A DNA stretch of 64,000 nucleotides, taken from NCBI GenBank assembly GCA_050253415.1, contig JBFWJC010000001.1, positions 576,001 to 640,000 on the forward strand, in the 5' to 3' direction. A program made the translations under genes and the position numbers. Shown piece by piece: positions 25,408-35,525 of the stretch; position 1 is the stretch's first letter, and each line of letters opens with the position of its first letter. The stretch is from Pedobacter sp. (GTDB taxonomy: Bacteria; Desulfobacterota; Desulfuromonadia; Desulfuromonadales; Syntrophotaleaceae). Below the pieces are notes generated by a model. It saw only the letters and a program-made list of their open reading frames with translations. It was not told where the DNA came from and searched no databases.

Positions 25408-26664
25408 ATGGAAATGATAGCCCTCGGCCTGCGTGTGCTGCTCGATTTTGTGTTTTATTATCCCCTGTTCATGGCTTATCTCTGGATGGTCGGCGGCCTT
25501 GACTATTATTTGCGCCGGGAGTACCGCAAACCGCTGCCTGATGTCCCGCCGCCGCTGCCGTCCTACCCGAAAGTATCGATCATCGTTCCCTGTCACAACG
25601 AAGCGGCACACCTGCACGATACTATCGGCTACCTGTTTCAGCAGAAGTATCCGGATTTTGAAATTATTGCCGTCAATGACGGCAGCAGTGACGCAACCGG
25701 CGAGATGCTCAATGCCATGGCGCAGCAGAATCCCCTGCTTAGAGTGGTGCATTTTGCCTCCAACCAGGGGAAAGCTATGGGGTTGCGCATGGCTGCATTG
25801 GTGGCTCGGGGAGAGTTTTTGGTCTGTATTGATGGCGATGCCCTGCTCGATCCCTATGCCACTCACTGGATGGTACGTCATTTTCTTACAGGGCCGCGCG
25901 TTGGTGCGGTAACCGGCAATCCGCGCATTCGCACCCGCTCAACCTTGCTTGGCAAAATCCAGGTTGGAGAATTTTCCGCCATACTGGGGCTCATCAAGCG
26001 GGCACAGCGTGTCTATGGTCGGGTTTTTACCATGTCCGGCGTGGTTTCCGCGTTCCGCAAATCAGCCTTGCATCATGTCGGTTATTGGAGTGTCGATATG
26101 ATCACCGAGGATATCGATATCAGTTGGCGACTGCAGTTGAGCCACTGGGATATCCGCTTTGAACCCAATGCCCTGTGTTGGATATTGATGCCGGAAACCC
26201 TCAAAGGGCTATGGAATCAGCGTCTGCGCTGGGCTCAGGGAGGCAGCGAGGTATTGCTGCGCTATCTGCGTCACATGTTTAGCTGGCGCGCGCGCCGCAT
26301 GTGGGGTGTTTATTTCGAATATTTCACCAGCATCGTCTGGTCGTACACCATGCTGCTGGTTTTTCTTGCGTGGATATGGGGATTGTTTTTACCGTTGCCG
26401 ATGAACTTGCAACTCCCCACGCTGATTCCCGCCTGGGCCGGGGTGGTGCTGAGTTTGACCTGCCTGTTGCAGTTTGCCGTGGCGATGCTGCTCGATTCGC
26501 GCTACGAGCGGGGGCTGGGCCGTTGCTACTATGTGATGATCTGGTACCCGCTGGCATTTTGGATGATCAATCTGCTGACCATCGTCGTGGGCTTTCCCAG
26601 GGCACTGCTTAAAAAACGCGGCGAGCGTGCGGTCTGGGTATCTACCGATCGCGGTATTTATTAG
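25408..26664 (+). CDS. pgaC: PNAG synthase (GT2)
   Basis: PCHNE, NDGSSD, CIDGD, TEDIDISW, QRLRWAQGG. Confidence 0.95.
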   Translation: MEMIALGLRVLLDFVFYYPLFMAYLWMVGGLDYYLRREYRKPLPDVPPPLPSYPKVSIIVPCHNEAAHLHDTIGYLFQQKYPDFEIIAVNDGSSDATGEMLNAMAQQNPLLRVVHFASNQGKAMGLRMAALVARGEFLVCIDGDALLDPYATHWMVRHFLTGPRVGAVTGNPRIRTRSTLLGKIQVGEFSAILGLIKRAQRVYGRVFTMSGVVSAFRKSALHHVGYWSVDMITEDIDISWRLQLSHWDIRFEPNALCWILMPETLKGLWNQRLRWAQGGSEVLLRYLRHMFSWRARRMWGVYFEYFTSIVWSYTMLLVFLAWIWGLFLPLPMNLQLPTLIPAWAGVVLSLTCLLQFAVAMLLDSRYERGLGRCYYVMIWYPLAFWMINLLTIVVGFPRALLKKRGERAVWVSTDRGIY

Positions 26665-26672
26665 GAGGCACG

Positions 26673-27236
26673 ATGAAGGACGATCTCATCATAAACAAAC
26701 CGGAAGCTCAACAACGCAGTCAGCGTATCGCGCAAGGTCTATTGACGGTTGGTTTCTGGTTTTTGTTTTTAAGTTTGCTGCGTCCCCTTCTGGCACTGGT
26801 TGGCTGGTTGATAGGGATACACCTGTTTACCCACGAGATGATCGAAAATGGCGGAGGGCGGATTCTTATAGAGACGCTATATGATTATGGACTGGTTGTG
26901 CTGGTGCTGGGGATAGTGCTGCGTAGCTGGGCCTGGTACAATCACCGGCGTTTTGCAGGTCGGGATCAGCGCCGCAAAACCATGCCGCCGATCCCGATAG
27001 AGCTAATTGCCCGATATCATCAGGTCGACCCCAGCGCTTTATCGCTATGGCAAAAGGATCGCTGCTTGTACGTGCGTCACAATGCTCAGGGGAAGGTGCT
27101 GGAGGTTCAATCATCCGAACCGCCTCCATGGGGTGTTGAAGCCAGCAGCGTGACCGTGACGCAGCATCCTCTCTTTTGTACGTATGGGGACTCTGCGGCA
27201 GAATCGACGGTTGTGCCACCGCCCCCCGCTCTATAG
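26673..27236 (+). CDS. pgaD: PNAG biosynthesis protein PgaD
   Basis: Two TM helices, WAWYNHRRF.G.D.R motif, directly after pgaC. Confidence 0.88.
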   Translation: MKDDLIINKPEAQQRSQRIAQGLLTVGFWFLFLSLLRPLLALVGWLIGIHLFTHEMIENGGGRILIETLYDYGLVVLVLGIVLRSWAWYNHRRFAGRDQRRKTMPPIPIELIARYHQVDPSALSLWQKDRCLYVRHNAQGKVLEVQSSEPPPWGVEASSVTVTQHPLFCTYGDSAAESTVVPPPPAL

Positions 27237-31961: not shown

Positions 31962-32639
31962 TTACGGACCACGCTCGGCGAGCCAGATAGTATGGAGGTC
32001 GCCCTTGTTGTTGTGCTCTCGTACACGGTTTTGCCTTACTTTGAAGCCAACCTTTTTAAGCCGCTCCGTAAAGTTGCGGTCAGGGCCGGCCGACCACACG
32101 GCGAGCAAGCCTTCGGGGCGTAGCGCTGAGTAGGATGCCGTCAAGCCTTCTATCGAATATAACCAATTGTTTTTTTTGCGGGTCAATCCCTCGGGACCGT
32201 TGTCGACATCCAGCAGAATCGCATCGTAGGCTCGCCGTTCGGACTTCAACACCTTGGCGACATCACCTTCGCGAACCGTGGCGCGCGCATCGCGCAAAGG
32301 ATGTCCCGCATGTTCGCCGAGCGCGCCCTGGTTCCATTTCACTACGGCCGGTACCAGCTCAGCCACCACCACTTCGGCATTGGCGCCGAGGTGCCGTAGG
32401 GCGGCAGCCAGCGTAAAACCCATGCCTAATCCGCCAATCAGTACGCGTGGGTCGGGACGACCAGCGACTTTCTTACACGTAACTTCCGCCAGTGCATCCT
32501 CGGACCCATGAGCGCGTGTGCTCATCAATACCCCCCCACCGACTATGCTGATGGAGAATTCAGAGTCGCGTTGGTGAAGTTGCAGTTCGCCATCGGTGCC
32601 GGGAATCGGAGCGGTGTCGAGCAGTTTCCAGGGAATCAT
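31962..32639 (-). CDS. Spermidine synthase-like SAM-dependent methyltransferase-fold protein
   Basis: GSEDALA, VLIGGLGMGFTL, AEL, LLDVDNGP, AVWS. Confidence 0.8.
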   Translation of the reverse strand: MIPWKLLDTAPIPGTDGELQLHQRDSEFSISIVGGGVLMSTRAHGSEDALAEVTCKKVAGRPDPRVLIGGLGMGFTLAAALRHLGANAEVVVAELVPAVVKWNQGALGEHAGHPLRDARATVREGDVAKVLKSERRAYDAILLDVDNGPEGLTRKKNNWLYSIEGLTASYSALRPEGLLAVWSAGPDRNFTERLKKVGFKVRQNRVREHNNKGDLHTIWLAERGP

Positions 32640-32803
32640 TTAGGGGTCTCGCATCGTAAGGGAAAAGTCAAAGGTGAGATAACAGGAATAGCTACACTGA
32701 ATAACACAAATGGGTATTGTGGGCCAGCCGCAAAAATCGTTCATGCGGAACAACCTGGGAATGGAGCAGAGGTGGCTTGGGCTTTGATCACGATGCAAGA
32801 CGC

Positions 32804-32840
32804 AAAAAGGGCGGCTTTCCCTGGGTGGGTGCCGCCCTTT
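32804..32840 (-). terminator. Intrinsic terminator after the TM2-pilin gene
   Basis: AAAGGGCGGC...GCCGCCCTTT stem with T5 on the minus strand. Confidence 0.65.
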
Positions 32841-32858
32841 GTCAAACATGGATACTGT

Positions 32859-33602
32859 CTATTCGATGAAATGAAACAGGCCGTATCCGCCTTCCATGCC
32901 GAGCTGGTCGGCGATCTCATTTTCGATCTCGGTGCGGGAAGTGGTGACTATCTCTGTGTCGTCACTGCTCGTCAGGTAGGCGTCGTCGCCATTTTTATGA
33001 AAGGTGATGATCTGAAAGTCATCCGGTCCAAGAGACCGATAGTAAACCGCTACACCATCGGCTGCGCCACAGGTCATCTGACCGCTTTGGGTTGGATATG
33101 TCAGGTAATCCGCATAATAAGATTGGGTTTGCGTCATGCAGTTTTTTAAATCGGACATGGCAGCTGCGTTGAAGGCTTTTTGTCGGTAGGCTGCAAATTG
33201 CGGAATGGCGATCGCAGCCAGGATACCGATAAAGGCAATGCCTACCATCGGTACGACAACCGCGAGAACCAGACCGACTCCGCTGGTGTCAGGATAGCGC
33301 TGTTGAAGTTCCGCCTCGCTTTTGAAGCAATAGAGTATAAATTCCACAAAGGCGATCAATCCGGGGATGCCGGTCCAGAAGAAAAGCAGATAAAGGAAGC
33401 CGAGTACATATTTCTTCACATAGAATTTATGGGCACCGAGGCCACCCAGAAAAAAAGTGATCAAAAGAAGAGCAACTTTACTGACGCCCGAGTTTGGTGC
33501 TGCCATGGCCCTGACCCCGCAGTGGGGGCAGATTTCGGCCTGGATATGCAGTTGTTTTCCACAGGTGGAACAAAATTTCCCCTGATCGATGTTTTCCGAC
33601 AT
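32859..33602 (-). CDS. Zn-ribbon + TM2 (NINE) membrane protein fused to a type IV pilin-like helix
   Basis: CSTC...CPHC; LGGLGAHKFY..LYLLFFWTGIP (TM2); IGILAAIAIPQFAAYRQKAFNAAAMSDLKN..YYADYLTYP (pilin alpha1). RBS GGAGG. Confidence 0.85.
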   Translation of the reverse strand: MSENIDQGKFCSTCGKQLHIQAEICPHCGVRAMAAPNSGVSKVALLLITFFLGGLGAHKFYVKKYVLGFLYLLFFWTGIPGLIAFVEFILYCFKSEAELQQRYPDTSGVGLVLAVVVPMVGIAFIGILAAIAIPQFAAYRQKAFNAAAMSDLKNCMTQTQSYYADYLTYPTQSGQMTCGAADGVAVYYRSLGPDDFQIITFHKNGDDAYLTSSDDTEIVTTSRTEIENEIADQLGMEGGYGLFHFIE

Positions 33603-33673
33603 TTTCCCTCCTTGATACATCCCCTGCAGGACATACATACAATAAATGATCCAATTAAAAGTAAACCTGACTT

Positions 33674-33702
33674 AATCTATTGAAAGCCTTGCTATATGTC
33701 AA
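33674..33702 (-). promoter_or_regulatory. Sigma70 promoter for the TM2-pilin gene
   Basis: Minus strand TTGACA-N17-TAGATT. Confidence 0.65.
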
Positions 33703-33761: not shown

Positions 33762-35525
33762 TTAGCCCGGACCAAAAGCTCCCACCGACAGGCCAGTGAA
33801 AAAATGCAGCGCGTAATCTCCAAGCTGGCCCGTGTCATAGCCGCCTTCCTGTACCACCAGGGTCGGTAGTTGAAGAGCCCCGAGAAGGCGCCCGTTCATT
33901 TCGAAGTCGGGAGGACGTAGGGGCCAGGTGCCGGTCGGGTCTCCCATGCCGGTATCAAACCCCAAAGCGATGACCAGAAAATCGGGACGGAACCGCTGGA
34001 TCCGTTTTATGGCGCGTCGCAGTGCCTCATGGTAGCGCTCGACCGTCACATGTTCCGCAAGGGGCAGGTTGAAATTGAATCCCTGCCCCGAGTCCGCACC
34101 GCGCTCTTCGGAAAAGCCGCTGAAGTAGGGGTAAGCGAAGCGGGGATGACCATGGATAGAAACCGTAAGCACGTCCGGCCGGTGGTAGAAAATATCCTGG
34201 GTACCGTTGCCGTGATGGTAGTCGATGTCGAGTACCGCGACCTTGCCGGTGCCACTTAGATAATGGGCGGCAATAGCGGTGTTGTTGAGATAGCAGAACC
34301 CGCCGAACAGGGCGCGTTCCGCATGGTGGCCGGGCGGTCGTATCAGCGCATAGGCCAGACGATGGCCGCTCAATAACTGGCGGGCGGCAGTCAGGGCGCA
34401 ATCGACGCCGCTACTGGCGGCGGGGAAGGCATTGTGCGTCAGCGGCGTAAAGGTGTCGATGCAGTAGTAGCCGGCTCGTGTCGCACGGTCTTTGGGGGGG
34501 CGGCTGGCGTTACGCACCGGGAAAACATAAGGGTAGACCGCCTCATCTGCCGGCAAGGTCGCGCAGACGGTTTTGAGATAGCGCACGAAAGCCCGGTCAT
34601 GCACGGCGGTAATGTGCCTGTCGGAAAAATGTTTAATCGGTAATGGTTCAAACATGCCTGAATCACGCAATTTTTCAAGGATGGCTTGGATGCGCGCCGG
34701 CGCTTCGACATAGCCGCGCTCCCGCACATGATGGATGTCGTGGTGGTGGTTGACGGTCAGCGCAATGCGTTCGTCGGCAGGAACTTCGGTGGTGACGGGC
34801 GGACGGTTAAGCGAGGGGGACCGGTATCGCCAGGGGCGCAAGCGTACCGGATCATCGGTGAAGGAATCGACAACCATGGCCACGTACTCGGGTGGGCAGA
34901 TGTGGCGATATTTGCGTTCCAGTATGGTCTTCACGATGGCCCTGGCTTGCAGTTTGCTCAAGGGATGATCCTGTCCCAGGTCGTCCCACATCAGGTAAGG
35001 GGGATTGTCGCCGTTCTGCTTGATCGGCGTTTCGTAGGCTGTGCCGGCAATGGGGCGGGCGCCATAACGTTCATAAAAACGCAACCGGGCACGGTTCTTT
35101 TTAAGGATTTCTGGATCGCGGCACAGCCGTGGATCATCCGGCAGGCATTCAAAAAACAACCCGGTTGCGCCCAGAGCCCGGGTTTCCTCGCGTACCCGTT
35201 GGTAAAGGGCGCCGCCGATGCCGCGACCGGTAAGCTGGCGGGCGGCGGAAATATATTCCAGATATCCGAATTTCAGTTCCGGTTCGTGCAACAGCAAGGC
35301 AAACCCTTCAACCTGGCGGCGTTGGTTTTCGGCTATATAGAGAATGGCGCGAAAGCCATGTTTGAGCGGGTTGCTCAGTTGCTGGGGAAGTTTGTCGATA
35401 TCGCGGGCCGGCAGGTCGGCAAACTGGGTCCTCAGAATCTGCTGCACATGGTCGATGGCAGTGCGGTTGACAGGCAGCACATCATCATAGATACGTCGGA
35501 TACGAAACATGGCGGTTTCCATCAT
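33762..35525 (-). CDS. GNAT acetyltransferase-histone deacetylase/acetylpolyamine amidohydrolase fusion
   Basis: N-terminus LEYISA..LTGRGIGGALY..FYERYG (GNAT); C-terminus RPPGHH, GGFCYLNN, DIDYHHGNGTQ, GFD..GDP, QEGGY (HDAC). Start 35525, 35522 or 35510. Confidence 0.88.
   Translation of the reverse strand: MMETAMFRIRRIYDDVLPVNRTAIDHVQQILRTQFADLPARDIDKLPQQLSNPLKHGFRAILYIAENQRRQVEGFALLLHEPELKFGYLEYISAARQLTGRGIGGALYQRVREETRALGATGLFFECLPDDPRLCRDPEILKKNRARLRFYERYGARPIAGTAYETPIKQNGDNPPYLMWDDLGQDHPLSKLQARAIVKTILERKYRHICPPEYVAMVVDSFTDDPVRLRPWRYRSPSLNRPPVTTEVPADERIALTVNHHHDIHHVRERGYVEAPARIQAILEKLRDSGMFEPLPIKHFSDRHITAVHDRAFVRYLKTVCATLPADEAVYPYVFPVRNASRPPKDRATRAGYYCIDTFTPLTHNAFPAASSGVDCALTAARQLLSGHRLAYALIRPPGHHAERALFGGFCYLNNTAIAAHYLSGTGKVAVLDIDYHHGNGTQDIFYHRPDVLTVSIHGHPRFAYPYFSGFSEERGADSGQGFNFNLPLAEHVTVERYHEALRRAIKRIQRFRPDFLVIALGFDTGMGDPTGTWPLRPPDFEMNGRLLGALQLPTLVVQEGGYDTGQLGDYALHFFTGLSVGAFGPG

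Follow-up and report, generated by a model that had tools for sequence, protein, structure and literature searches.

A pilin is ordinarily recognised by its cleavable leader, which defines the type IV pilins, and finders that look for the leader, such as PilFind (used, in the available text, in PMC5174107), miss proteins in which a pilin stands behind other domains. The gene considered here encodes such a protein, a single chain in which a zinc ribbon and a TM2 domain are followed by a helix closely similar to that of a geopilin, and it raises the question of what a pilin that seems unable to enter a pilus could do in the membrane.

The gene and its protein

The earlier note on this DNA had described a 247-aa protein with its own promoter and terminator and with no pilus genes nearby, and these claims stand. 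The reading frame translates to 247 aa from the start given in Table 1, which is probably the right one, as judged from the GGAGG before its ATG and from the 247-aa length of the closest relatives; an in-frame ATG further upstream would give 259 aa. All seven orthologues compared have GGAG(G) ahead of the start codon. Taken by itself, the promoter scan is at chance level (2 found versus 1.7 expected), yet TTGACA-17 nt-TA(G/A)(A/G)TT lies upstream of the gene in five of five same-genus orthologues; it was not seen in the two further relatives compared. The hairpin 3′ of the stop codon, which a consensus terminator scan did not pick up, was matched in stability by none of 200 shuffles, and a comparable GC hairpin occupies this place in the same five orthologues.

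Table 1. Coordinates of the gene, its signals and the parts of its product
Feature	Position	Strand	Basis
Gene for the Zn-ribbon/TM2/pilin fusion, 247 aa	32859..33602	-	ORF calls, translation
Ribosome-binding site AAGGAGG, 4 nt ahead of ATG 33602	33607..33613	-	sequence
Sigma70-type promoter: TTGACA 33702-33697, 17 nt, TAGATT 33679-33674	33674..33702	-	10/12 consensus matches
Intrinsic terminator, 10-bp GC-rich stem and U-tract	32804..32840	-	z -3.6
Zn ribbon, C11-x2-C14 ... C25-x2-C28	33519..33572	-	sub-cut-off Pfam matches
TM2 domain, residues 39-89, then short helix 96-102	33336..33488	-	Pfam PF05154, model helices
Pilin positions 1-13, residues 113-125, hydrophobic but decayed	33228..33266	-	alignment, pN/pS (residues 107-125)
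Gly14-Pro22 segment GILAAIAIP, residues 126-134, most conserved stretch	33201..33227	-	conservation
Geopilin-type alpha1-C helix, pilin 23-58, with Cys155	33093..33200	-	alignments
PilA-C-like beta-sheet head, Cys178, acidic C-terminal helix	32862..33092	-	model, fold search, profiles
Overlapping ORFs	32508-33149 and 33180-33683	+	taken as shadow ORFs

The gene is monocistronic, and its neighbours vary among loci. The window, by which we mean the whole 64-kb stretch of DNA analysed, holds no homologue of pilB, pilT, pilC or pilR and one generic kinase match, and no linkage to pil genes appears in the host genome or in the 17 other loci inspected. The host's pilus cluster (short pilA-N, pilA-C, pilR, pilS, pilC, pilT, pilB), which encodes its true short pilin, is on another contig; its PilS has six TM segments, and pilS adjoins pilR and pilA. 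The host genome also has three Roadblock/LC7 genes. The upstream neighbour (33762-35525, minus strand, 587 aa) joins a GNAT acetyltransferase to a histone-deacetylase-family domain, two opposing activities in a single chain, and the window also carries, at 25408-27236 on the plus strand, a glycosyltransferase and a small membrane gene that we take to be pgaC/pgaD look-alikes for a biofilm polysaccharide.

In the N-terminal half, the TM2 domain passes its curated Pfam cut-off (E 3e-14; 53.3 bits against 27.9), and the zinc-ribbon models match residues 6-33 with scores under theirs, in keeping with the ribbon and TM2 hairpin noted earlier. Each of the four ribbon cysteines is at least 90% conserved over 130 alignment rows, and the ribbon is predicted to be cytoplasmic and to bind zinc. 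A fold search with this half alone gave no match of Z at least 5 among 48,161 chains, and a TM2 tree (66 columns, five starred branches, crude labels) is too weak for origins to be counted. A host paralogue (L022:970-1359, genome G000, contig C2) carries the same ribbon ahead of a CD225/dispanin domain (E 1e-24).

The pilin half begins after 112 residues, with pilin position 1 at residue 113. Against solved geopilins, residues 116-173 give E values from 2e-17 to 6e-15, and chains 2m7g_A (E 4e-15) and 9egp_A (E 2e-17) align ungapped with residues 125-170 (33230-33093), so the segment does align with type IVa pilins. The 31 identities in 46 that the earlier note had counted by hand over positions 13-58 of Geobacter PilA-N recur in the count from the 2m7g alignment, and the host's own PilA-N shares 30 of 46 residues at positions 13-58 and only 1 of 12 at positions 1-12. 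That alignment also bears out the aromatics reported at positions 24, 27, 32, 51 and 57, with extra tyrosines at 50 and 54; position 1 is not aromatic. Likewise, positions -1/+1/+5 read V/L/V as described, with Val in place of Gly-1 and with neither Phe1 nor Glu5, so the prepilin peptidase site of a type IV pilin is missing. No class III signal motif occurs anywhere in the protein, and the N_methyl profile, which matches the host PilA-N, does not match the fusion. Among 121 close relatives, none of the 119 that are readable has Gly-1 or Glu5; none of 74 readable distant relatives has Glu5, and one has Gly-1; and no prepilin-like cleavage motif lies within 30 residues upstream in any of these 119 + 74. 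The missing leader would rule out cutting of the fusion by prepilin peptidase.

What follows the helix amounts to more than a short tail. The AlphaFold2 model (mean pLDDT 86) has one long alpha1 helix, residues 108-166, containing Gly14 and Pro22, and then a four-stranded pilin beta-sheet, and its best structural match is Thermus PilA4 (6xxd; Z 9.7, rmsd 3.0, 117 residues, model range 111-230; Foldseek E 1e-4). Foldseek also finds the PilA-C chains of 9egp, 7tgg and 6vk9 with probability 0.85-0.94 and weak E values of 0.1-0.2, the family profile matches the PilA-C chain 9egp_B at E 0.024, and 9 of 16 PilA-C proteins outscore every one of 800 shuffles with the head profile. With that profile the PilA-C of the host reaches 4.9 bits, below the top shuffle, and a profile comparison of the family with this one protein alone was weak (probability 1%). 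On this model, the C-terminal half is predicted to fold as an entire type IVa pilin in one chain rather than as a short e-pilin, and the earlier label “e-pilin-like” gives way to a full-length fold of 135 aa with its own head. The “small acidic head” with a second Cys fares better in part: residues 171-247 hold 14 D/E versus 3 K/R and Cys178 is there, but the head is a four-stranded, PilA-C-like sheet. Cys155 is accompanied by a Cys near 178 in 93 of 130 rows, neither is present in 35 and the second stands alone in 2, so that each of the 93 rows having Cys155 also has its partner; this joint presence and absence suggests a likely periplasmic Cys155-Cys178 disulfide.

Selection and distribution

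Purifying selection is strongest on pilin residues 14-30. Among five orthologues, pN/pS is 0.066 for positions 14-30 and 0.53 for the membrane stretch just upstream (residues 107-125), with intermediate values for TM2 (0.13), ribbon (0.17) and head (0.25); over 130 rows, column conservation is 0.98 at positions 14-22 versus 0.47 at positions 1-13. Gene conversion from pilA was considered and rejected: codons are identical with the host's own pilA at 10 of 30 shared residues and with 11 foreign pilA genes at 9-17 of 27-34, and since synonymous sites are no closer to own than to foreign pilA, selection rather than conversion accounts for the likeness.

The fusion recurs widely. TM2 is present in all of the best 120 of 1767 matches, among which the named relatives point to Desulfuromonadales, and of the 301 class genomes surveyed for the architecture, 16 carry the full fusion, every one of them in the host's order, with one degenerate copy besides. 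Among the best 150 representatives (50%-identity clusters), 94 have TM2 and then the pilin helix and 56 lack this arrangement; the strict motif is kept in 74 of the 94 and missing from 20. Atlas clusters that combine TM2 with Pilin have 400 members and those that combine DUF2628 with Pilin 156, and automatic database names already include “TM2/pseudopilin PulG” and “TM2/PilE”. Recurrence in 16 of 301 class genomes and 94 of 150 representatives rules out a chimeric artefact, the reading that the earlier note had reserved for a fusion absent from all relatives.

Variants of the plan are found among the relatives. L131, L133 and L137-L139 consist of a ribbon, one membrane helix and a pilin. L144:5042-5710 is a TM2-pilin relative that has lost both ribbon and GILAAIAIP and kept the head, and L140:4619-4933 is a head-only second copy about 2 kb downstream of an intact gene, with an opposite-strand ORF of 716 aa between them. 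Small membrane genes form arrays at L132:3728-5377 and L136:4441-5547, where a Zn-ribbon/TM2 gene directly precedes a separate Zn-ribbon/pilin gene, with PLDc_N separate or fused; these arrays are a split form of the fusion.

The Glu5-less helix reaches beyond TM2 proteins. A DNA pattern (no Glu5, then GILAAIAIP, an aromatic at 24 and Tyr27) matches only the fusion gene in the host genome. Widened at one codon for the class count, it occurs a single time in each of 35 of the 301 class genomes, and the Glu5-less pattern is found in 18 of 331 gammaproteobacterial genomes, with a reversed-pattern control of 0 in each case; these counts are lower bounds, the pattern recovering 115 of 121 close relatives but 59 of 150 representatives, and such searches select for the very motif they count. 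Patchy, with one copy per genome and missing from most pilus-bearing genomes, the fusion is an accessory rather than a core part of the pilus system. The modules found ahead of the helix are the Zn ribbon alone, PLDc_N, an MJ0042-type ribbon, DnaJ, DUF805, GYF_2, M48 peptidase, a protein kinase, a DUF2628-like segment (a weak match, L039) and a large unnamed domain. Since DUF805 forms and several M48 forms are headless, ending soon after position 31 with the helix in place, the helix is the shared unit of these fusions. When each fusion is paired with its nearest canonical pilin, 31 of 32 own-class fusions fall to the geopilin type and 13 of 16 gammaproteobacterial ones to the gamma-PilA type, in a comparison that takes its gamma reference pilins from viral-contig loci and leaves out headless short forms, and the host lineage's pilin type is followed even where the N-module is identical (TM2 or M48). 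This agreement need not mean co-evolution, since the fusions could have arisen recently from the pilA of their respective hosts.

Some of these proteins deserve mention in their own right. M48 membrane peptidases ending in the Glu5-less helix occur in Gammaproteobacteria (L152, L157) and in the host's class (L273, L280, L282-L286, L289, L291); the M48 Pfam model passes its cut-off in seven of seven scanned, HExxH is visible, and the two lineages have similar glycine-rich linkers, with residues 23-31 following the host's pilin type. They are candidates for a pilin quality-control protease. A Ser/Thr kinase (L292:3-2000) and a DnaJ-domain protein (L143:1970-3334) each have a multi-TM segment and a Glu5-less geopilin-type helix at the end. 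In L156, L158, L159, L160 and L170, proteins of more than 600 aa end in a PF00114 pilin whose hydrophobic start is shortened; their large N-terminal region had no Pfam match in the two scanned.

A possible role in the membrane

We put at about even the chances that the fusion is a non-polymerising pilin-mimic adaptor or sensor that docks on the membrane pilin pool or on the pilus platform. Without a leader it would escape prepilin peptidase and stay in the inner membrane, and without Glu5 it would not be recruited for filament assembly. The relatives that combine a Zn ribbon, a single TM helix and a pilin, together with the paired cysteines of the head, argue for an N-in/C-out topology, with the ribbon inside and the head outside as in a normally oriented pilin, in which case TM2 would make no net crossing. 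The conserved helix from Gly14 to position 31 would mimic the host's major pilin and be read by a pilin-recognising inner-membrane partner, for which the platform or the pilin pool itself would be the simplest candidates; docking would bring the cytoplasmic ribbon to the pilus system as a sensor or adaptor, which could then tune pilus assembly or pilin turnover. According to the available text of PMC11046646, Pro22 marks major but not minor pilins in Myxococcus, residues 18-20 affect pilin accumulation there, and major pilins melt around Pro22 in filaments. Glu5 is required for recruitment of a pseudopilin by PulM, and PulG E5A loses PulM binding (bioRxiv 2022.09.21.508927, in the portion available), with which a form not extracted into filaments would fit.

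The earlier note's picture of a non-polymerising, membrane-tethered mimic thus gains support from the absence of Gly-1 and Glu5 in 119 relatives and of Glu5 in 74 more, from selection on residues 14-30 and from wide recurrence: with leader and Glu5 dropped yet Gly14-Pro22 nearly fixed, this half-helix would be recognised in the membrane for some purpose other than the building of filaments. Against a docking role, the fusion is unlinked to pil genes and most pilus-bearing genomes do without it; against a role centred on the helix, 20 of 94 TM2-pilin representatives lack the strict motif and L144 keeps the head without it. Relatives with a decayed motif and a retained head fit a head-centred role.

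The main rival, which we hold to be rather unlikely, is a pilus-independent receptor, in which a generic Zn-ribbon/multi-TM chassis has taken over the pilin fold as a head that binds ligands in the periplasm. This chassis can be likened to proteins that combine ZnR/GYF with RDD, CD225, DUF805 or DUF2628, and Attia et al. 2024 (PMC11135422, in the text available) proposed transmembrane signalling for ZnR/GYF placed before these modules or a TM peptidase; the N-modules seen here are those listed there as predicted multi-TM receptors with ZnR/GYF. The same ribbon in the host's CD225 paralogue, the 56 of the best 150 representatives that lack TM2 followed by the pilin helix, the separation from pil genes in every locus read and the purifying selection on the head, which L144 keeps without the motif, all suit a receptor of this kind. 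The headless forms nevertheless keep the helix, selection is strongest on residues 14-30, ahead of the head, and the motif occurs in none of 79 genomes lacking both PilS and pilM. We regard as unlikely a regulator that sways pilA transcription by contacting PilS within the membrane, whether as an agonist that is always on or in competition with PilA. The host does have a six-TM PilS encoded beside pilR and pilA, Pro22 is kept, and P22A is reported to break the PilA-PilS contact, but E5K is reported to disrupt it as well (bioRxiv 2022.05.13.491915, available portion), and Glu5 is absent throughout the relatives. A PilS-type domain is present in all 18 motif-positive gammaproteobacterial genomes, and the motif in none of 108 PilS-negative ones. 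With the seed genome and G511 left out and the non-carrier G347 included, PilS accompanies 17 of 17 carriers versus 204 of 312 non-carriers (p 0.0009) and pilM 16 of 17 carriers (p 0.04), p-values that overstate the link because kin are not independent, many assemblies are small or incomplete and genome size confounds. Within pilM-positive genomes, the PilS figures are 16 of 16 versus 198 of 227 (p 0.12, not significant), so that co-occurrence with PilS is indistinguishable from co-occurrence with the pilus machine; among five named-locus genomes, four passed the PilS cut-off and one matched weakly.

It is quite improbable, in our estimate, that the fusion stalls or anchors the pilus at its base, or that a membrane protease frees the pilin half as a minor pilin. 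The complete pilin fold would allow this, as would the retained alpha1-C aromatics and Gly14-Pro22, the segment that melts in filaments, and M48 fusions show that a protease can sit in cis; yet the filament-core positions 1-13 drift, the relatives offer no cleavage motif upstream, and headless forms exist. The suggestion of a phage-receptor decoy, or of a defence protein, found little support and strikes us as very remote. A patchy, solitary gene in variable regions, with TM2 and Zn-ribbon parts that match phage families of unknown function, might look like one, but phage tail fibres cannot reach inner-membrane proteins, none of four proteins had a PADLOC match (2023 library), and among 94 motif matches at 93 viral-contig loci just one lacks Glu5.

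If the fusion is instead a docking mimic, a broader reading follows that we offer tentatively, as possible though not favoured: the helix from Gly14 to 31 would be a portable membrane “address tag” that directs modules to the pool of type IVa pilins or to the platform. In Desulfobacterota, Gammaproteobacteria and further phyla, this helix would have been joined, in the form used by the host's own pilin but lacking Glu5, to Zn-ribbon/TM2 sensors, DUF805 proteins, GYF adaptors, M48 proteases and a kinase. Were this true, mimics that do not assemble would sense the pilin pool and control pilin quality, an unrecognised layer of pilus control, and Glu5-less fusions would be natural probes of the counting and turnover of the pilin pool, so far known only via PilS.

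Comparison with known systems

TM2-pilin fusions, or Glu5-less fusions as a class, are not described in the literature searched, which took in few subscription papers, although they are visible in automatic annotations. The available text of PMC9427106 (DUF805 + pilin) has nothing on them; PMC11135422 mentions neither pilin nor TM2 in its supplement text or in the main-text portions screened for “pilin”; the drawings in its figs. S3-S4 could show a pilin domain. The earlier remark that no characterised example is known therefore holds for this literature, but an analogous leaderless protein, XAC3805, was already in print.

By its alpha1 helix (31 of 46 at positions 13-58) and its PilA-C-like beta-sheet, the fusion resembles the geopilin PilA-N/PilA-C of Geobacter sulfurreducens (2m7g, 6vk9, 7tgg) and G. 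metallireducens (9egp). It differs in being one chain rather than two, in having no leader, Gly-1, Phe1 or Glu5, and in its added N-terminal Zn ribbon and TM2, its lack of linkage to pil genes and its sigma70-type promoter. In Desulfuromonadia, where PilA-N/PilA-C is linked with electron transfer, the fusion touches on that system, and it cautions that geopilin-like matches in surveys are not all nanowire subunits. Short e-pilins of the PilA-N type are truncated, below 100 aa, with PilA-C in a separate gene (PMC5174107, as far as its available text goes); the fusion keeps their aromatics at 24, 27, 32, 51 and 57, and its pilin part has 135 aa and a head of its own. Full-length type IVa major pilins provide the best structural match, Thermus PilA4 (6xxd), but they lack the extra membrane and cytoplasmic domains of the fusion, which in turn has no class III signal peptide. 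Glu5-less minor pilins of the PilX/GspK kind have a cleavable prepilin leader and belong to a minor-pilin operon; the fusion has no leader and is monocistronic among variable neighbours. With class III leader and Glu5 missing and alpha1 and a predicted beta-sheet head present, it stands, as far as its sequence tells, outside the assembling type IVa pilins.

On its N-terminal side, the fusion shares with GltJ-related predicted ZnR/GYF multi-TM receptors (PMC11135422, available text) an N-terminal Zn ribbon, a membrane module and a putative extracytoplasmic domain; unlike them, it has a single short ribbon and no GYF, and TM2 is not among the modules named there. The GltJ ribbon binds MglB and its own linker, not MglA. 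The TM2 domain, over its Pfam cut-off, makes the fusion like TM2 (NINE) proteins of PF05154, most stand-alone members of which end after the domain where the fusion continues into a pilin. Closest in plan are Xanthomonas XAC3805 (DUF4339/GYF_2 + pilin) and Lysobacter AZ78_3612, leaderless proteins encoded far from the pil cluster that were judged, in the available texts of PMC10333488 and PMC4960238, to be probably not bona fide pilins. Compared by these descriptions, the fusion is likewise a leaderless pilin-like protein away from pil genes, with Zn ribbon and TM2 where XAC3805 has GYF_2 and a gammaproteobacterial head; a GYF_2-pilin protein of the XAC3805 plan was itself found in our survey (L169).
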